From contig CALFUV010000008.1 in assembly GCA_937929825.1 (NCBI GenBank), positions 11,838 to 75,837 of the forward strand: a stretch of 64,000 nt of DNA, written 5' to 3'. Source of the DNA: an uncultured Patescibacteria group bacterium. GTDB lineage: Bacteria; Patescibacteriota; Patescibacteriia; Veblenbacterales; UBA10138. Position 1 is the stretch's first letter; each line of letters begins with the position of its first letter. The notes under the pieces are model-generated. The model saw nothing but the letters and a program-made list of their open reading frames with translations, had not been told where the DNA came from and ran no database searches. The position numbers were made by a program, and so were the translations under genes. This document shows, one piece after another, positions 1,528-42,429 of this stretch.

Positions 1528-3285
1528 TTAATCAATTAAAGTTCTAACGGTTTTTTTATACCATTTGGGCGTATCCCAAAATCTTTCTGCTGGTTGCCCC
1601 ATTATTAATCTGGCAAAACCTTTAATGGAATTATTTTGAACATAACTGTAATTTAGACTGTAAAGAAAAGTAGCTGGACTTTCTTGTCGTAATATGTTTA
1701 AGAATTTGATATATTTTTCTTGACGCGCTTCCATTTCAGAAATTTGTCTGGCCTCAACTAATAACTGATCTGCTTCTCTATTTTGAAATTGAGCTAAATT
1801 TAATCCCGGTGAAGCAATTTGTGATGAGTGCCAGAATGGGTACGGATCTGGATCAAGTCCCATAACTTGAGTAATAAGAATCGCTTCATAATTACGAGGA
1901 TTGATGACATCATTCATTAAAAATAACGGCGCCACTGGTTTTATTTCTGTTTGTACACCTACTTCTGCCCATTGTCTTTTGATTTCATTGGCCACTTGTA
2001 TTTGTTCGTCATAATCAATTACGGTTAAAGAAATTTTTAATTCCTCGCCATCTTTCATTAGATAATTATTTTGTCCCGAGCGAGTATAACCTGCTTTTTC
2101 AAATAGTTGAAGGCTTTTTGTTTGATCGTAAGTAATAGCACCAGCACTGGTGCGATTTTTTAATTCACCAAACACAAAAGGGCCGATAGCTGGTTGGGCT
2201 TTACCAGATAAGGCTCGTTGAATAAGGGCTGGGCGATTAATTGCGTAGCTGAGCGCTTGTCTGATAGAAGGATCTCGAAGAGCGTTGTTAGTGTTAGGGT
2301 TGTAAAAAATAGCAGTGTATTGAGGAAGCGTGATATCGTAAATAATAAAACGACGTGGGTTTAGACTGGCTTTTTCGCGAATAGAAAGATCTCCTAGGGC
2401 ATCAATTGAGCCTTGTCGCAGAGCTTCAAGTGCATTGGTCATATTTGGAAAAAATTTCAAGTTTAATTTTTTGAAATACGTTTTTTCGTTGACGGAATAA
2501 GGGTTTTGTTCTAATGAATAACTTCGCAGGTTGCCTTGTCCATCGCGAGTTAGGGAACTAATACGCCAAGGACCAGCACCGATTGGTTTAAGATTTGTTT
2601 CCGTTTGTTGCCATTTTTCATAAGGTATATTTTGCCAAATATGACGAGGAATCAAACCAATTGTTAAAGCGTGCAAGAATGGGGAATAAGGTTCTTTTAA
2701 ATTAAAACTAATAGTTTCTCCATCATCTAAGAGGGAGATATTTATATTACGAAAACTGCCTGCTAAAGGACTAGCCAATTTGGTTTGTTTAGCGCTTTCA
2801 AAAGTAAAAACAGCATCGGCGGCTGTAAGTGGTTGCCCATCAGACCATAGTAATCCGGATTTAATTTTTACAAAGTACGTTTTTTTATCTTGGCTTAATG
2901 ACCACTCTTCAGCTAAATCTTTAATTATTTGACCATTTTCATCAGTACGGAAAAGCCCGCGGTGAGTTAAGAAAACTAGATCAAGATCAGCATCACTGGT
3001 AGCCAGCAGGGGGTTGGCTGTTTTTGGATTTCCTATTACCCCCTCGTTGAATTCTCCGCCTTCTTGAGGAGCTAAAATTGTTTTGTTTTCGTAAATTCTA
3101 TAACCTAAGGCTAGACTGCTGATTAAAATTAATAATGTTAAGTAGAGAGCTATTCTTTTTTCAGTCTGGGAAAGTATTTTTGGTAAAAGTCGGAATTGAT
3201 TTAGTGATGGTAAAATAGGCCCAAAAGCGGGCAGTAAAGAATTTTCAGCTCGATTATAATGGCTGCTGCTAAAACTTTGCCGCAC
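1528..3285 (-). CDS. ABC transporter substrate-binding protein, family 5 (oligopeptide/dipeptide-binding, OppA/DppA-like), N-terminal membrane anchor
   Basis: 585-aa ORF. Hydrophobic anchor LYLTLLILISSLALG, then a large soluble domain with the size and composition of family-5 solute-binding proteins. Assigned by recognition only. Confidence 0.55.
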   Translation of the reverse strand: MRQSFSSSHYNRAENSLLPAFGPILPSLNQFRLLPKILSQTEKRIALYLTLLILISSLALGYRIYENKTILAPQEGGEFNEGVIGNPKTANPLLATSDADLDLVFLTHRGLFRTDENGQIIKDLAEEWSLSQDKKTYFVKIKSGLLWSDGQPLTAADAVFTFESAKQTKLASPLAGSFRNINISLLDDGETISFNLKEPYSPFLHALTIGLIPRHIWQNIPYEKWQQTETNLKPIGAGPWRISSLTRDGQGNLRSYSLEQNPYSVNEKTYFKKLNLKFFPNMTNALEALRQGSIDALGDLSIREKASLNPRRFIIYDITLPQYTAIFYNPNTNNALRDPSIRQALSYAINRPALIQRALSGKAQPAIGPFVFGELKNRTSAGAITYDQTKSLQLFEKAGYTRSGQNNYLMKDGEELKISLTVIDYDEQIQVANEIKRQWAEVGVQTEIKPVAPLFLMNDVINPRNYEAILITQVMGLDPDPYPFWHSSQIASPGLNLAQFQNREADQLLVEARQISEMEARQEKYIKFLNILRQESPATFLYSLNYSYVQNNSIKGFARLIMGQPAERFWDTPKWYKKTVRTLID

Positions 3286-3356
3286 CCGGTTAAACGCTCG
3301 GTTTATTATAGTTGTAAGCGCGTTCCATCCTTGGCGCAGCGATTTAATAAATCGCT

Positions 3357-3581
3357 TTAGATTAGTATATTCCAGATGACAAGTCCAAAAAAGATGACAG
3401 TAAAAATAATTGTGCTTATAAAAAGACCTTTTTCCACACCGCGTTTGGTTCGGTAAACATTACCTTCGCCGCCAAAAATACCCCCCAGCCCTGCACCGCG
3501 GTTTTGCAGTAAAATAGATATAATCAAGAGGACCGAAACGGTTACTTGAGCAATTTGCAGATAACGTTCAATATCCATCAC
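3357..3581 (-). CDS. secG: Preprotein translocase subunit SecG
   Basis: 74 aa with two TM helices and the SecG-like pattern LLQNRGAGLGGIFGG...RTKRGVEKGLFISTIIFTVIFF. Confidence 0.6.
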   Translation of the reverse strand: MMDIERYLQIAQVTVSVLLIISILLQNRGAGLGGIFGGEGNVYRTKRGVEKGLFISTIIFTVIFFGLVIWNILI

Positions 3582-3686
3582 AATATGATAATCTTATCAG
3601 GTACGAGTATAAATACTTAAGTAACATAACATATCTATATTATTCTGTCAATGCTTTATAATTTAAAAAATTAAATTGGTTATTAA

Positions 3687-5705
3687 ATGGCAAAAGACTT
3701 TAATTTATTAAATGGTCTTAATAAACCACAACAACAGGCAGTTACTATGATAAATGGTCCTGTATTGGTGCTGGCCGGGGCAGGTAGTGGTAAAACAAAA
3801 ACTCTTGTTCATCGTTTGGCATATTTAATTGCCAATGCAGGAGTCTCTCCGGAGAGAATATTGGCCGTTACTTTTACTAATCAGGCAGCCAAAGAGATGC
3901 GACAGCGAGTCCAGGATCTTTTGCCGGGGGAGGTTTCCCGTCAGCCGTTATTGGGGACTTTTCATTCCCTTAGTGCCCGTTGGTTGCGCCAAGAATCTTG
4001 GCGTGTTAATTACCCCATGAATTTTTCAATTTATGATTCTGATGATCAGCTGAGTTTAATAAAGGAGGCTTTAAAAGAGCAAGGAATTGGCTTGAAAGCT
4101 GTTAGTCCCAAAGCTGTTTTGACGGTTATTTCAAGAGCTAAATCAGAATTGGTTACACCGGAAGGTTTTAAAGATTGGACAGAAGACTCCCCATTTTCTA
4201 ATTTAGTTGCTGATATTTACCCTCGTTATCAAAAATTATTAGCACGCGACCGCGCTTTTGATTTTGATGATTTACTTATGAAGATGGTAGAAGTTTGGCA
4301 AACAGATCCCCAGTTGTTAAAAGTTTATCAGGAACGGTATCATTATTTATTAATTGACGAATATCAGGATGTAAATCATGCTCAATATGTTTGGACCAAG
4401 TTGCTTGCTAGCGCTCGGCAAAATTTATGTGTAGTAGGAGATGACTGGCAATCAATTTATTCTTGGCGTGGAGCTGATTTTGGCAATATTTTAAGATTTC
4501 ATGAAGATTATCCTAAAGCCCATGTTATCAAATTGGAGCAGAATTATCGTTCCACTAAAGTGATAATTAAGGCCTCCAATGCTATTATGGCTCAAGCACA
4601 AATGAAGGTGGAAAAAAAATTATGGACCAATAATCCTTTGGGCCAACCATTAAGGATAGTGGCATTAGAGGACGAGGTGGCTGAAGCAAATTTTGTGGTT
4701 GAGGAAATTTTAAAATTTACAAATTCCCCGAAAGAACTTTCTTATGAACCGATTGATGATGTTTTATTGCCATCTATTGGTCATATGCGTCGCTATCATG
4801 GGACAGGAGAAGATTTAAAAGGTTACGCCGTGCTTTATCGTACCAATGCACAAAGCCGTGCCTTAGAAGAAGCTTGTTTGAAAGTAGGCTTGCCTTATCA
4901 GTTGATTGGCGGAATTAGATTTTATGAGCGTAAGGAAATAAAAGACGTTTTGGCTTTTTTGCGCCTGATAATTAACCCTTTTGATGGGCTTAGTTTTCGA
5001 CGAGCCTTGCTTGCCACTGCCAATGGTTTGGGTTTGGTAACCGTTGAAGCTATGCTCATACAGGCTGATAATAAAAAAATATCCCCCTTACAAGTCTGCC
5101 AAGAAAATAGCATTAAAGGAGAACGTGGACGGTTTTTGCGTGAATTTGCTGATTTAATAAATAAATTTTGTCAGGCTGCCCCAAAAGCCAGAGTTTCGGA
5201 AATGATTGATTTAGTGTTGGATAAAAGCGGGCTGGGTAAAGAACTTTTAGAGCAAAGAATTGACGGTGAGACAAGATATGAGAATATTTTGGAATTAAAA
5301 ACTGTAGCTGAAGAAAGAGCATCAGGTATAGGCATAGAATCATTAGCCAATTTTTTGGCAGAAATTGCCTTATGGCAGGATCAGGATGGTTATAAGAATA
5401 ATAAGTGCGGGATTACTTTAATGACATTTCATGCGGCCAAGGGACTGGAATTTGATACTGTATTTATGGTTGGTATGGAAGAAGGTTTGTTTCCACATGC
5501 CTCATCTTTTGCCGATCCAGCTGAACTGGACGAGGAAAGGCGTTTGGCTTATGTTGGTTTAACCCGTGCCCGCCGGCAAGTTTATTGTTTGTATGTTTTT
5601 AACCGTCGTTTATTTGGCTCTCTTAGTCCTAGTTTGCCATCACGCTTTATTACTGAATTGCCGCCAGATTGTGTGGAGTCAGTTATAGCTTCCAGATTTA
5701 TATAA
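3687..5705 (+). CDS. pcrA: ATP-dependent DNA helicase PcrA/UvrD (superfamily 1)
   Basis: Walker A AGAGSGKTKTLVHRLAYLI, helicase motif II LLIDEYQDVNHAQY, motif VGDDWQSIYSWRGA, C-terminal VGLTRARR. Confidence 0.9.
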   Translation: MAKDFNLLNGLNKPQQQAVTMINGPVLVLAGAGSGKTKTLVHRLAYLIANAGVSPERILAVTFTNQAAKEMRQRVQDLLPGEVSRQPLLGTFHSLSARWLRQESWRVNYPMNFSIYDSDDQLSLIKEALKEQGIGLKAVSPKAVLTVISRAKSELVTPEGFKDWTEDSPFSNLVADIYPRYQKLLARDRAFDFDDLLMKMVEVWQTDPQLLKVYQERYHYLLIDEYQDVNHAQYVWTKLLASARQNLCVVGDDWQSIYSWRGADFGNILRFHEDYPKAHVIKLEQNYRSTKVIIKASNAIMAQAQMKVEKKLWTNNPLGQPLRIVALEDEVAEANFVVEEILKFTNSPKELSYEPIDDVLLPSIGHMRRYHGTGEDLKGYAVLYRTNAQSRALEEACLKVGLPYQLIGGIRFYERKEIKDVLAFLRLIINPFDGLSFRRALLATANGLGLVTVEAMLIQADNKKISPLQVCQENSIKGERGRFLREFADLINKFCQAAPKARVSEMIDLVLDKSGLGKELLEQRIDGETRYENILELKTVAEERASGIGIESLANFLAEIALWQDQDGYKNNKCGITLMTFHAAKGLEFDTVFMVGMEEGLFPHASSFADPAELDEERRLAYVGLTRARRQVYCLYVFNRRLFGSLSPSLPSRFITELPPDCVESVIASRFI

Positions 5706-5710
5706 AAATT

Positions 5711-5742
5711 AAAGCCTCTGTTTATTTAGCGACAGAGGCTTT
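5711..5742. terminator. Bidirectional intrinsic terminator hairpin between convergent pcrA and a small minus-strand ORF/uvrC
   Basis: AAAGCCTCTGT-ttatttagcg-ACAGAGGCTTT, with A/T runs on both sides. Confidence 0.5.
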
Positions 5743-5751
5743 GAAAAATTT

Positions 5752-5892
5752 TTAGGCGCCCACTCCTAGAGTTTCTTCATCAGTAAATATATCATCAATG
5801 TCTATGTGTGGTTTGCGCTGTCTAGGTTTAAACCCCCAGATTAGTAGGTAACTTAATGTTACCAAGCCAAAACTGAAAAGTAACTTTTTCAT
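5752..5892 (-). CDS. Small ORF (46 aa) with signal-peptide-like N-terminus, missing from the ORF track
   Basis: Minus-strand ATG at 5890-5892 preceded by AAGGAG (TTAAAAGGAGAACTATG). Product MKKLLFSFGLVTLSYLLIWGFKPRQRKPHIDIDDIFTDEETLGVGA, stop at 5752. Confidence 0.35.
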   Translation of the reverse strand: MKKLLFSFGLVTLSYLLIWGFKPRQRKPHIDIDDIFTDEETLGVGA

Positions 5893-13507: not shown

Positions 13508-15145
<1,638 letters not shown>

Positions 15146-39562: not shown

Positions 39563-40102
39563 TTTTTCCTTCAGCTTAGATGATTGAATAGCCTAAAGTC
39601 AAATACTGGCGTGTTAGTCTTTAAAAAGCTATTATTAAAGTGATATTATAATTCTTAATTAATTAAAATTTATGTATAATCCTTCCGAACCCCTACCGCC
39701 GATTGTCCTATTATTTGGGCTTTATTTATTATTTGGCGCCAGTTTTATGTTGGGCATGATGTCGGCCACTTCTTTATATTTTTTGGCTAATTTATAATTT
39801 CCTGTTTATAAACAGCTATATAAAATGGCCAAATTTTCAATTTCTTATATATTTTAAAGATAAAGCAGATATAATTAATTTATATTTATAATCTAGAAAG
39901 TGTTTTTACTGGTAGGAGTTGTTTGACCTTAAGTTTTTACTTTCTAATGTCTTGGGTTTTAATTTATTAAAATAATCAAATTAAGTTACAATAACTTACT
40001 TTGAAACTTATTAATCTGGAGCATAATATAAGTAATATTAAGACCATTAGAATTTCAGTCTTTTGTATTGATGAATTTACCTGGCCAACTATGCCGTGGC
40101 TA

Positions 40103-40125
40103 CATTCGTACGAATAGTAGAATGA
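40103..40125 (+). promoter_or_regulatory. Operator/promoter motif copy 1: palindrome TTCGTACGAA plus TAGAAT -10-like box, 20 nt upstream of the ArsR-like gene
   Basis: CATTCGTACGAATAGTAGAATGA; nearly identical to copies at 40447 and 40856. Confidence 0.45.
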
Positions 40126-40144
40126 TAATAGTTTAAGTATTTAA

Positions 40145-40420
40145 GTGAACTTATATTTTATGTCCGGACCAGAGTACACTTTCAAGGCCTTTGCCAATAA
40201 GCGCCGCTTAGCTATTTTAAGATATTTAATGACACACCCCGAGGCATCAGTAGGCGGGCTGGCTGATGCTATCAAATTATCTTTCCGTTCAACTTCTAAA
40301 CATTTGGCGATCTTGGTTGTAGCTGGTGTGGTGGAGTATGAGCAAAGAGGCAAGCAGATTTTTTACAAACTCGTTTCTTCTCCTCCTGCCCTGATTCGTA
40401 AACTTCTTACCCTTATCTAA
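40145..40420 (+). CDS. ArsR/SmtB-family winged-helix transcriptional regulator (small, 86-91 aa)
   Basis: FKAFANKRRLAILRYLMTHPEASVGGLADAIKLSFRSTSKHLAILVVAGVVEYEQRGKQIFYKL, the ArsR HTH pattern (RL.IL..L...V..L......S...S.HL..L...G.V...R.G....Y.L). Confidence 0.6.
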   Translation: MNLYFMSGPEYTFKAFANKRRLAILRYLMTHPEASVGGLADAIKLSFRSTSKHLAILVVAGVVEYEQRGKQIFYKLVSSPPALIRKLLTLI

Positions 40421-40446
40421 TTCGTTGCATTTTTTTATTTAGGTAA

Positions 40447-40469
40447 CATTCGTACGAATGGTAGAATAA
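40447..40469 (+). promoter_or_regulatory. Operator/promoter motif copy 2 (TTCGTACGAA-TGG-TAGAAT), downstream of the ArsR-like gene and about 25 nt before a terminator
   Basis: CATTCGTACGAATGGTAGAATAA; an extended -10-like TGgTAGAAT. Confidence 0.45.
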
Positions 40470-40487
40470 TAACCTTTGGTTTGGGAA

Positions 40488-40524
40488 ATAAAAAAGGATG
40501 GCGTTACCATCCTTTAATTTTTTT
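40488..40524. terminator. Bidirectional intrinsic terminator (also ends the minus-strand gene 40533..40832)
   Basis: aataaaaaa-GGATGG-cgtta-CCATCC-tttaattttttt. Confidence 0.65.
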
Positions 40525-40532
40525 CTAAACTT

Positions 40533-40832
40533 TTAGAATTTGTATAGCTTTTTATTTTCGTGGTAAAAGCGAATACTTATGCTTGCCACAATAAAGACAA
40601 GATCAATGATAGCTAATTCTATCAAGTGATTGTTTTTAGGCAGGGTTACTTTTTGGGTTTGGTTATGCGCGTATAGATACGTCTCAGTTGTGAGACAGGC
40701 GATAAATAAGAATATTATGAATCCTATCCATAAAAACAATTTGCTTAATATCTTCAAGGTGCATCCTTTCTTTTGGTTTTGTAATGTTTGTCTTGGAACG
40801 TAAATTATAACCGCCAATTTCTTTCTAGTCAA
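40533..40832 (-). CDS. Hypothetical small membrane protein; true start probably internal (TTG at 40755-40757, about 74 aa)
   Basis: Track ORF begins with TTG at 40830-40832, which is part of a strong minus-strand sigma-70 promoter (TTGACT-17-TATAAT at 40827-40832 / 40804-40809). An in-frame TTG preceded by AAAGGA lies downstream of it. Confidence 0.35.
   Translation of the reverse strand: MTRKKLAVIIYVPRQTLQNQKKGCTLKILSKLFLWIGFIIFLFIACLTTETYLYAHNQTQKVTLPKNNHLIELAIIDLVFIVASISIRFYHENKKLYKF
40804..40832 (-). promoter_or_regulatory. Sigma-70 consensus-like promoter on the minus strand (TTGACT-N17-TATAAT)
   Basis: Reverse complement of 40804-40832 is TTGACTAGAAAGAAATTGGCGGTTATAAT. Confidence 0.5.
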
Positions 40833-40855
40833 CCCCTCACCCTCCCCCTCGGTCT

Positions 40856-40878
40856 AATTCGCGCGAATGGTAGAATAA
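40856..40878 (+). promoter_or_regulatory. Operator/promoter motif copy 3 (TTCGCGCGAA-TGG-TAGAAT), about 110 nt upstream of the Q-rich secreted protein gene
   Basis: AATTCGCGCGAATGGTAGAATAA. The palindrome core has covaried (TA to CG) while keeping dyad symmetry. Confidence 0.45.
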
Positions 40879-40986
40879 GACATGGTGTCTAAACAGAGAG
40901 TTTAAGTGAAACAAGGGGGGCTGGATGGCGCGTTATATTAAGGTGTAGACTAAATAAGGAGGGTTTATTATTAACTCGCTTAATAT

Positions 40987-41745
40987 ATGTCAGAAGTTAG
41001 GAAGGATTTGTTTATTGGTGTCGGTTTTTTAATGGCCGCCATGGTTTTAGTATCTTTTGCTATTGCCGTTCAGGTGCAGGCAAGAGAAGGTGAGGATGAT
41101 TCAATTTCATCCGATACTTCTTTTGGTTTGAAAGTAAGGGGGGATGGCACGGTTGACGATTCGCAGCCAGGAATTGGCGCTGCTGTGCAAGCACAAGCAC
41201 AAGTTCAAAACAGGGGCGAAGAAACTCAGGTTCAGGCACAAGTTCAAGCTCAGGAGCAAACCAATATGCCAGATTCTGCTCCTGGCCAAGTTAATAAAGA
41301 GAATAAAAAAATAGGTCAGGACAAGGCGGCTGAGCATCGCAGCGCAGTGGCAAATTTTGTACAAAGCTTGCTTCAAGTAGCTGATAGCAAGCCTGGGGGT
41401 ATTGGTGAGCAAGTTCGTAATATAGCCCAGCAGCAAAATCAATCAGCTGAAGTTATGATTCAAGCTATGGAAAAAGTACAAACCAGAAGCAAGATAAGAA
41501 CATTTTTATTTGGTTCAGATTATAAAAATTTAGGCACTTTGAGAAGTGAAATGGTCAAAACCAGAAATAGATTGGAGCAGTTGAATAGATTGATAGTTAA
41601 TATAGATAATGAAGCTGATAAAATTGAGTTGCAGAATCAGATCCAAAATCTTATTCAGGAGCAGGAAAGTATTGATAATTTTATAAAAGTTCAGGAAATT
41701 AAGATTAGTTTATTTGGTTGGATAAAGAAACTTTTCAGTAATTAG
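40987..41745 (+). CDS. Secreted or anchored protein with Q/A/V-rich low-complexity repeats (QAQAQVQ) and a C-terminal coiled coil
   Basis: N-terminal TM/signal (LFIGVGFLMAAMVLVSFAIAV), repeats AAVQAQAQVQNRGEETQVQAQVQAQEQ. Confidence 0.4.
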   Translation: MSEVRKDLFIGVGFLMAAMVLVSFAIAVQVQAREGEDDSISSDTSFGLKVRGDGTVDDSQPGIGAAVQAQAQVQNRGEETQVQAQVQAQEQTNMPDSAPGQVNKENKKIGQDKAAEHRSAVANFVQSLLQVADSKPGGIGEQVRNIAQQQNQSAEVMIQAMEKVQTRSKIRTFLFGSDYKNLGTLRSEMVKTRNRLEQLNRLIVNIDNEADKIELQNQIQNLIQEQESIDNFIKVQEIKISLFGWIKKLFSN

Positions 41746-41934: not shown

Positions 41935-42429
41935 ATGCAAAAAAAATATTTTATCTTTGTATTTTTGATTGTAGTGGTGATTATTGGGGTAATTTTTATT
42001 TTCAATAAACCCGCACTAGAGCCGGCGACAGTTTCAACGACAGTTATACCAACTGGCAGTAGCCAAGATGAAGTGCCAACCAGCACCATGCCCACATTAG
42101 AGGAGAATGAAACTCCAGAAATGCTAGTGGGTGAAGTGAAAGAATTCACCATGACCTCTTATTATTCACCAGAGACTAAGCGACCATATTTTAGTTTGAA
42201 TGAGATGGTGGTAAATCAGGGAGACACGGTACGCATCAGGGTTACCAATACCTTTGGTAATCATGATATTAAAATAGACGAGTATAATGTGTTTGCCGAA
42301 ACGCCCTTAAACCAGGAAGTGGTGGTGGAATTTGTGGCGGATAAGGTTGGCGATTTTGTTTATTACTGTTCTAAACCCGGGCATCGTGCGGCCGGGCAGT
42401 GGGGAACTCTACGTGTATTGAAACAATAA
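41935..42429 (+). CDS. Membrane-anchored cupredoxin-domain protein (type-1 blue-copper-like; ligands His...Cys-X4-His-X4-Gln)
   Basis: N-terminal TM anchor and Thr/Ser/Pro-rich linker, then a beta-rich domain with GNHDIKID (upstream His) and YYCSKPGHRAAGQWG (Cys, His, Gln in the axial-ligand position, stellacyanin-like). Confidence 0.5.
   Translation: MQKKYFIFVFLIVVVIIGVIFIFNKPALEPATVSTTVIPTGSSQDEVPTSTMPTLEENETPEMLVGEVKEFTMTSYYSPETKRPYFSLNEMVVNQGDTVRIRVTNTFGNHDIKIDEYNVFAETPLNQEVVVEFVADKVGDFVYYCSKPGHRAAGQWGTLRVLKQ

Follow-up and report, generated by a model that had tools for sequence, protein, structure and literature searches.

The locus described here lies in a 64,000-nucleotide stretch of DNA (the window) from an uncultured Patescibacteria group bacterium (GenBank assembly GCA_937929825.1, contig CALFUV010000008.1, positions 11,838 to 75,837 of the forward strand; all coordinates below are those of the window). 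It comprises a gene for a small ArsR-like regulator and three copies of a palindromic site, O1 to O3, each followed by a TAGAAT box that is assigned to a candidate promoter, P1 to P3. The window was searched on both strands for TTCGYRCGAA-N3-TAGAAT with up to two mismatches, and dinucleotide-preserving shuffles of the window (n = 100) served as control. Exactly three matches were obtained in the 64 kb (40105, 40449 and 40858), all on the + strand and all exact, with a mean of 0.16 matches in the shuffles, none of which (0/100) reached three. The three + strand copies described in the first-pass annotation, which had been made from the letters alone, were therefore exact and are absent elsewhere in the window; its start coordinates were each one base low, and the palindrome, given there as 10 bp, is 12 bp long (ATTCG-NN-CGAAT, at 40104–40115, 40448–40459 and 40857–40868). 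Further copies of the 12-bp palindrome were not found in the 64-kb window, even with one mismatch allowed. The core features are as follows, with bit scores from a position weight matrix (PWM) trained on 170 sites of the regulator family.

40104..40115, + strand: putative operator O1, perfect 12-bp palindrome ATTCGTACGAAT, upstream of the regulator gene; 22.4 bits
40118..40123, + strand: TAGAAT, candidate −10 of P1 and at the same time the outer right arm of O1, without TG extension
40160..40420, + strand: regulator gene, 86 aa, ArsR/SmtB-fold winged helix-turn-helix (Pfam, NCBIfam, AlphaFold, Foldseek)
40448..40459, + strand: putative operator O2, ATTCGTACGAAT, 27 nt past the regulator stop codon; 24.5 bits
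40459..40467, + strand: TGGTAGAAT, extended −10 of candidate promoter P2, overlapping the final base of O2
40857..40868, + strand: putative operator O3, ATTCGCGCGAAT, with left arm GGTCTA; 38.6 bits
40868..40876, + strand: TGGTAGAAT, extended −10 of candidate promoter P3, with a predicted leader of ~100 nt to a gene for a Q-rich protein

The runner-up position in the window scored 4.6 bits, each of the three sites scored better in + orientation, and O3 was the best fit to the family consensus. TAGAAT begins after a 2-nt gap 3' of each 12-mer (40118–40123, 40462–40467 and 40871–40876), and copies 2 and 3 read TGGTAGAAT across the box; at P1 a second candidate −10, GATAAT, is found at 40124–40129. 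The right flank of O1 is homologous to that of the upstream site in two related loci (L098 and L093; L-numbers such as L005, L093 or L151 label the compared loci), and the right flank of O2 is similar to that of the downstream site in L093.

The regulator most likely starts at ATG 40160 and not at GTG 40145, because nearly all homologues are 86–88 aa long and align from that Met, and the exact 86-aa product is present in a database record. The protein matched Pfam HTH_5 (PF01022) with 31.6 bits (cut-off 22) and NCBIfam NF033788, named 'metalloregulator ArsR/SmtB family transcription factor', with 67.2 bits (cut-off 55). A profile of 24 homologues, compared with solved structures, found HlyU best (3e-15), and also Lmo1102, NolR, YgaV, CzrA, BigR and CadC. 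The AlphaFold model, which is that of a monomer only, has a predicted local distance difference test score (pLDDT) of 91.4 and the topology α1-α2-α3-α4(recognition)-β1-β2-α5 (helices 4–12, 14–25, 31–38 and 42–54, strands 58–63 and 66–71, helix 77–85), and Foldseek gave template modelling (TM) scores of 0.75–0.82 to CadC, SqrR, NolR, HlyU and CzrA. Profile score, winged-helix fold and, at the sequence level, a dyad operator overlapping the promoter all place the protein within the ArsR/SmtB family.

Residue conservation was read from the alignment of the 24 homologues. The recognition helix LSFRSTSKHL is nearly invariant, and the invariant columns are E5, K9, A12, R15, R16, I19, V31, S41, T45, S46, H48, L49, L52 and Y69. 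Cys is absent from the window protein and no conserved Cys occurs in the family alignment, the sole invariant His (H48) is located inside the recognition helix, and neither an α3N/α5 metal ligand set nor an Asp/Glu ligand set nor a reactive Cys pair is present in the alignment, so that the ligand set of an ArsR/SmtB metalloregulator or redox sensor is lacking. The equivalog models BigR, CmtR, TsoR and Rv2640c scored 25–38 bits against cut-offs of 115–155. Judged by its residues, the regulator is an ArsR-fold protein devoid of every known sensory site of the ArsR family, and the metal- or stress-responsiveness that the first-pass annotation had proposed was not upheld. In one related protein of 179 aa (P0025) the 86-aa profile matches twice, an apparent tandem fusion of two regulator domains. 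A link to defence systems was considered and dropped, as PADLOC showed only generic helix-turn-helix similarity to Csa3 and CasR.

Relatives were gathered from a set in which each GTDB species is represented by one genome. A profile-guided scan of this set yielded 232 matches; comparative counts refer to the best 80 of these, at 45–62% identity to the window regulator. With a best match of 62% identity, the source genome must be outside the set. Additional contigs with homologues of 48–79% identity, including eight metagenomic loci, were also compared. An exact core ATTCGNNCGAAT is expected by chance at 4^-10 per position, or ~0.01 times per 12-kb locus. Across the best 80 loci, exact cores at no more than 150 bp from the regulator numbered 76 on its upstream and 65 on its downstream side, a further 29 were located farther off, and 63 loci had a site on both sides; in 22 loci the final A of the regulator's TAA stop codon is also the first base of the downstream core (offset 3). 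Every one of the additional contigs likewise carries the core upstream and just downstream of the regulator, with differing GC content and neighbours. The comparison with related genomes that the first-pass annotation had recommended thus returned the same core flanking the regulators. Given that regulator and site occur together so regularly, and that recognition helix and core are both nearly invariant, the palindrome is very probably the operator of the adjacent ArsR-like regulator. The near-universal presence of the upstream copy would imply autoregulation, as had been suggested for copy 1, whose distance to the gene is ~34 nt instead of 20 nt once the start is set to ATG 40160.

All relatives listed belong to the Patescibacteria (Kerfeld-, Lipton-, Doudna-, Nomura-, Giovannoni-bacteria and others, with metagenome-assembled genomes labelled Saccharibacteria). 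A profile search of 1.84 billion representative proteins gave 511 clusters (50% identity) at E ≤ 1e-10, nearly all of 85–95 aa. No relatives were found in viral contigs (IMG/VR), and a phage origin is unsupported. A literature search on the motif strings and on ArsR regulators of the candidate phyla radiation (CPR) found no description of the subfamily, which is apparently Patescibacteria-wide, undescribed and of a well-known switch kind. Two paralogous regulators within 1–2 kb were seen in L095, L021, L023 and L055.

The family logo reads TTCTCTA / ATTCG-YR-CGAAT / RR-KM-GAAT-A and can be laid out as a 12-2-12 consensus, TTCTCTAATTCG-CG-CGAATnnnnGAA. Complementarity between the flanks is 0.6–0.85 at offsets 3–7 from the core, ~0.6 at offset 9 and at background by ~14, so that dyad symmetry reaches ~9–13 nt on each side of the core. 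This extended symmetry matches the 12-2-12 inverted repeats reported for SmtB/ArsR proteins, which are often located near or overlapping the start site (PMC8790569). By its flank complementarity the full element is a 12-2-12-like inverted repeat, of which TAGAAT forms the outer part of the right arm. The centre dinucleotides of 171 family sites are CG (86), TA (46), CA/TG (24), CT/AG (12) and others (3); the preserved dyad that had been noted for the TA-to-CG change in copy 3 is accordingly a family tendency, not a rule. A role of the centre as specificity determinant of paralogues was rejected, as centres differ between sites of one locus, and the conserved CTA left of the core is not a relic of a stop codon, as orphan sites, which lie apart from any regulator homologue, are not at ORF ends (ORF, open reading frame).

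Between 56 and 67% of family sites have no extension beyond the 12-bp core, and the extension length is bimodal, with either 0–3 nt or 6–19 nt per side. Perfect palindromes of 30–44 bp centred on the core were observed in L017, L033, L035, L042, L053, L065 and L087, with outer arms that differ between sites, even inside L053. Locus-specific recognition of the arms, gene conversion and template-switch 'palindrome correction' are possibilities for their origin.

The two arms differ in their promoter-like content. GAAT at +17 (NNGAAT) was found in 67% of family sites, as against 17% for the mirrored ATTC at −8; TGnTAnnnT at the TAGAAT position in 27 of 170 sites, as against 0 of 170 for the mirrored left arm; a hexamer with at least 5/6 matches to TATAAT at the TAGAAT offset in 18% of sites, as against 0% on the mirrored left; and a good −10 within 40 nt at 94 sites on the right, as against 38 on the mirrored left. 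The commonest right arm in the family, GGTAGAAT (23/170 sites), is also that of the window. This asymmetry indicates that the right arm also carries a second signal, which is directional and −10-like. The start site can be anchored in some relatives: in L005, L030, L031, L045 and L073 the distance from the end of the hexamer at the TAGAAT position (TACTAT, TAGAAT or TACAAT) to the regulator ATG is exactly 6 nt, which leaves room for a leaderless transcript only, starting at the A of the ATG. A −10-like hexamer ending exactly 6 nt before the ATG was present in 27 of 71 loci, with a background of ~4–5. Where a separate TATAAT −10 exists, the operator is located 11–22 nt upstream of it, and with the start anchored by the leaderless geometry operator centres fall at −19.5 to −41.5, always within the core promoter. 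The window regulator has a leader of ~30 nt, conserved in L098, L093 and L095, and for this reason its start site is predicted instead of anchored; starts are expected near 40130 for P1, 40474 for P2 and 40883 for P3. The sequence TGGTAnnnT also occurs 53–65 nt upstream of the window genes at 13514, 16206, 28241 and 42706 (pilB-like), which supports TGGTAGAAT as a native extended −10 and suggests a frequent use, in this organism, of promoters with a TGG-extended −10 and no clear −35. Taken together, the TAGAAT box likely functions as a −10, extended in copies 2 and 3, where the earlier proposal of an extended −10 is plausible in view of the asymmetric right arm and the leaderless geometry in relatives.

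The best explanation, to which we assign a probability of roughly 70%, is an autoregulated, sensor-less ArsR-like repressor that would act by promoter occlusion at operators fused to a −10. The 86-aa protein would bind ATTCG-YR-CGAAT and the flanking arms as a dimer, possibly as two dimers, and RG-TAGAAT would double as the right outer arm of the operator and as a rightward (extended) −10, so that bound protein, covering ~−26 to −7, would shut out RNA polymerase. At O1/P1 this would amount to negative autoregulation of the regulator's own gene, and at O3/P3 to control of the gene for the Q-rich secreted or membrane protein; O2/P2 would be the family-typical downstream operator, here cut off from genes, and may be a remnant, a roadblock or a sink. 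No signal is apparent, and the protein may be a ligand-free homeostat or may respond to some partner. The sign of the regulation is probably negative. The repressor-occluded promoter with an operator fused to the −10, as initially read from the window, thus holds on the family-wide co-occurrence and the asymmetry of the arms.

The neighbouring features bear on what each copy would control and are located as follows.

40493..40515, both strands: bidirectional intrinsic terminator hairpin with T-runs on both strands (−12.2 kcal/mol, z = −3.9, equalled by 0/200 shuffles)
40533..40757, − strand: gene for a two-transmembrane protein of 74 aa, with a probable TTG start at 40757 after GAAAGGA, separating O2 from O3
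40804..40832, − strand: sigma-70-like promoter TTGACT-17-TATAAT of the membrane-protein gene (11/12 consensus), divergent from O3/P3 and conserved in L093
40987..41745, + strand: gene for a Q-rich coiled-coil protein with an N-terminal hydrophobic segment, likely a regulated target

The position of copy 2 just after the regulator gene was confirmed and is typical of the family; the terminator and the convergent gene behind it had been overlooked. The terminator starts ~25 nt past copy 2 and also ends the convergent membrane-protein gene, which has 81% nucleotide identity to L093 1635–1891 and no matches in Pfam or NCBIfam. Since terminator and convergent gene follow O2, no obvious gene is driven by it here, and O2/P2 is probably a stranded operator-promoter that would yield a transcript of at most 45–50 nt or act as a roadblock. 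The Q-rich protein has no Pfam family above threshold; its homologue in L093 (50% amino acid identity) sits directly behind the downstream operator of that locus, and the leader from 40906 on has 76% nucleotide identity to L093. With leader and gene kept behind an operator in both loci the target appears conserved, and the Q-rich gene is likely the target of O3/P3, in line with the earlier view of copy 3 as its control element. A strong Shine–Dalgarno-like AAGGAGG at 40957–40963, for which L093 has AAGGATGG, lies 23 nt before the Q-rich ATG and is too distant for a normal Shine–Dalgarno sequence.

The order of modules is membrane gene, operator, regulator, operator, Q-rich gene in L093 (1440–2550), whereas in the window (40104–40990) O1, regulator and O2 come first, then the terminator and the membrane gene, and finally O3 with the Q-rich gene. 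Tandem duplication and a later deletion between operator repeats would account for this difference. Farther downstream, a cupredoxin-like membrane-anchored protein of 164 aa is encoded at 41935–42429 and contains YYCSKPGH; its matches to copper domains of the plastocyanin type and of the NosZ C terminus were weak and all below the curated thresholds. An operator upstream of this gene was found neither by the palindrome search nor by the PWM scan of the window, and between the Q-rich gene and this one lies an AT-rich spacer of 189 nt; as no site precedes the latter, the co-regulation of the cupredoxin gene that had been considered possible is unsupported. The description of 39.6–42.7 kb as gene-poor was roughly right, with ~50% coding share in 39.2–42.7 kb vs. 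~83% in the whole window. Ahead of O1, an extended −10 TGTATAAT (39672–39679) overlaps the ATG of a hydrophobic 41-aa ORF (39672–39797), which opens an AT-rich, otherwise ORF-poor stretch of ~400 nt. An Rfam scan of 39.2–42.8 kb gave sub-threshold matches only, originating from the terminator hairpin, so that the motif is not accounted for by any known RNA.

Sites were also collected independently of the regulator by querying JGI metagenomes with CTAATTCGYRCGAATNNNNGAAT. This site-first scan covered at least 120 loci with 176 cores, 48 of them less than 200 bp from a regulator homologue, 89 orphan and 39 undecidable at contig ends, and roughly six sites per regulator are estimated from these metagenome loci. 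Orphan sites share the extended arms and do not overlap upstream stop codons; a gene start was faced on the right-arm side by 27 of 72, vs. 8 of 72 on the left. The genes behind orphan sites include those for Mur ligases, ClpP, GluRS, topoisomerase I (TopA), RF1, TGT and transketolase, and those beside regulators encode ArgRS, LCAT-type lipases, NUDIX, SecA, TatD and many proteins without a family. The 81 downstream ORFs beside regulators fell into 69 clusters, 63 of them singletons. A conserved target function was sought by all-against-all BLAST and Pfam analysis of 81, then 71 downstream ORFs, and no common theme emerged; one lineage (L014, L040, L060 and L072) keeps a pair of 600-aa paralogues, with a separate site ahead of each.

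The densest arrangement was observed in L151, where 11 co-oriented operator-like sites within 4 kb (1990–5830) form a site-gene-site array. Three tandem sites in this array are spaced 70–80 bp apart with repeated spacers and no genes between them, one site is located ~55 nt before an S-adenosylmethionine (SAM) riboswitch (2209–2330, 48.4 bits), and two of the sites have a tRNA between them, encoded on the opposite strand. Toxin–antitoxin genes (YafQ, ParE/RHH (ribbon-helix-helix) and MazE) adjoin the regulator cassettes in L095, L098 and L006. L006 and L008, and likewise the window and L093, lose synteny at the border of the upstream site, which in the former pair is its left edge. DNA looping between the flanking operators was considered and found unsupported, since the centre spacings of 286–490 bp show no helical phasing (Rayleigh p 0.11–0.98).

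Several points weigh against the occluding repressor. A sensor-less repressor with a regulon that varies between genomes and includes housekeeping genes is hard to rationalise physiologically. A recognisable −35 is absent at O1, O2 and O3, and O1 also lacks the TG extension; O2 drives no gene; operator centres near −40, as seen in some relatives, would also be compatible with class II activation; and ~30% of family sites are perfect palindromes of 24–50 bp with variable outer arms, longer than two small dimers obviously need. Furthermore, O1, O2 and all sites beside the closest relatives (L093, L098 and the second regulator of L095) have a TA centre with ..AC directly to the left, and O3 has a CG centre with GGTCTA to the left, a type that in L095 flanks a second, 54%-identical paralogue. 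Given this resemblance, O3 might answer to a paralogue encoded outside the window. Centres vary within single loci of many genomes, and for this reason a single regulator probably tolerates both TA and CG.

Part of these observations would suit an activator or recruitment factor, in which the palindrome-bound protein replaces the −35 and recruits polymerase to the adjacent −10: besides the missing −35 at all three window sites, leaderless relatives with a separate TATAAT have the operator centre at ~−30 to −41, the position of a class II activator, the nearest solved relative, HlyU, is deposited as 'transcription activator', and the housekeeping genes behind orphan sites (ClpP, Mur ligases, GluRS, RF1, TopA) are unlikely to be kept off. 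Extended −10 promoters of the sigma-70 type need no −35, however, and in the window as well as in the commonest family class the −10 is the right arm itself, so that a protein centred at ~−20 would be expected to collide with sigma instead of recruiting it. The literature on 12-2-12 operators names ArsR/SmtB members that act as repressors (PMC8790569), and activation is regarded as unlikely. A metal- or stress-sensing ArsR/SmtB metalloregulator with a metal regulon including the cupredoxin gene would agree with the NCBIfam family name and with the copper-protein-like gene 1 kb downstream, with its weak cupredoxin and NosZ C-terminal matches, but is highly improbable for a Cys-free protein of a family without a conserved Cys/Asp/Glu ligand set, with sensor equivalog scores far under the cut-offs, no operator before the cupredoxin gene and no metal theme among the family targets.

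The palindromes could also be primarily recombination or mobility sites of moving cassettes, with regulation being secondary. The diversity of neighbours (69 clusters among the 81 downstream ORFs, 63 singletons), the break in synteny between L006 and L008, which coincides exactly with the left border of the upstream site, the differing order of regulator and membrane-gene modules in the window and L093, arrays such as that of L151 with its tandem gene-less 70–80 bp units, the often adjacent toxin–antitoxin genes and the long perfect palindromes with variable arms would all be accommodated by this. It is nevertheless very unlikely, as a recombinase or transposase is not consistently present, relatives are missing from viral contigs, the sites point at gene starts (27 vs. 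8 of 72) and carry promoter signals, orphan sites are not on ORF 3' ends, and a conserved centre with variable ends is the reverse of integron attC sites; passive homologous recombination between repeated operators can explain the reshuffling. Barely credible is a function of the motif as a nucleic-acid hairpin, be it an RNA terminator, attenuator or processing signal or a DNA cruciform, for which the long perfect palindromes with co-varying arms (~30% of family sites) and the downstream copy that often abuts or overlaps the regulator stop (22 loci, offset 3) might be cited. The window sites fold with only −4.8 to −7.9 kcal/mol (z = −0.6 to −0.8), whereas the true terminator nearby reaches z = −3.9; they do not combine a stable GC-rich hairpin with a T-run as an intrinsic terminator does, and no T-run follows them. 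G:U bias is absent beyond the position explained by the TGG extension of the −10, more than half of the sites (56–67%) have no extension beyond the 12-bp core, and the invariant part would be the loop and the loop-proximal stem, a poor fit to a simple stability element.

The fluidity of the genes next to the sites motivates a broader reading, in which the ~30-bp operator/−10 element and the sensor-less 86-aa regulator would form a portable, self-contained 'regulated promoter' module, specific to Patescibacteria, that is copied or recombined before arbitrary genes, both housekeeping and accessory, with the operators serving as breakpoints of gene order. Site-gene-site arrays and a regulon with a turnover between genomes would be its products. 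As no recombinase is associated, passive recombination between repeated operators would suffice as explanation. We consider this module doubtful; if true, there would be, in place of an ordinary local repressor, a global circuit shared by the whole lineage, whose members otherwise have almost no characterised regulators. The mechanism itself is not of a new kind. Its relevance lies in the fact that transcriptional regulation in the CPR is almost entirely uncharacterised, because these organisms are uncultured and have few recognisable regulators, and that the pair has an unusually clean computational signature. It is directly testable with synthetic protein and DNA and usable for reading regulons from metagenome-assembled genomes, and the leaderless loci, by anchoring start sites, inform the promoter architecture of the lineage, namely an extended −10 TGGTAnnnT without −35.

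Compared with known systems, the sites differ from integron attC sites, which are imperfect palindromes of 57–141 bp with conserved ends (R''/R'), located at the 3' end of each ORF and next to an integron integrase. Here the palindromes measure 12 bp, or up to ~50 bp with their extensions, the centre is conserved and the ends vary, and orphan sites do not lie over upstream stops; an integrase was not seen in the Pfam-scanned loci, in a search that was not exhaustive. AspA of the archaeal plasmid pNOB8 is a small ArsR-fold centromere-binding protein whose palindromic target is located ahead of the gene that encodes it. It is a distant sequence match (5e-5), much weaker than HlyU and NolR, and differs in that no parB/parA partners were seen here and that the sites are chromosomal, multiple and each facing a gene start. 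The controller (C) proteins of restriction–modification systems are small helix-turn-helix proteins whose palindromic C-boxes overlap their own, often leaderless, promoter and which gate a downstream gene; the leaderless geometry in 27 of 71 family loci recalls them as an analogy of mechanism only, as they have an Xre-type helix-turn-helix instead of the ArsR winged helix and no activate-then-repress sign was observed here. Restriction–modification families were not among the top 25 families by member count in the regulator-side and orphan-side sets of neighbouring genes.

Closer are SmtB, CzrA and CadC, small dimeric winged-helix autoregulated repressors of the same fold and Pfam/NCBIfam family, with an inverted-repeat operator of ~26 bp in 12-2-12 arrangement that overlaps the promoter (PMC8790569). 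The window system departs from them in the absence of α3N/α5 ligands, in an operator unrelated to the TGAACA/TGTTCA type, in non-metal targets and in a gene placed between two operator-promoters instead of a single operator at the head of an operon. The best sequence and structure matches are found among HlyU, NolR, PagR and YgaV (HlyU 3e-15, NolR TM 0.81), which are likewise small and without classical metal sites. HlyU and BigR have a redox-active Cys pair, which is missing here, and the identity to this group is ~30–36%, with a different operator and a restriction to Patescibacteria. NolR and HlyU control several unlinked promoters, and in this respect their action resembles the multi-site regulon that would be served by the regulator described here.

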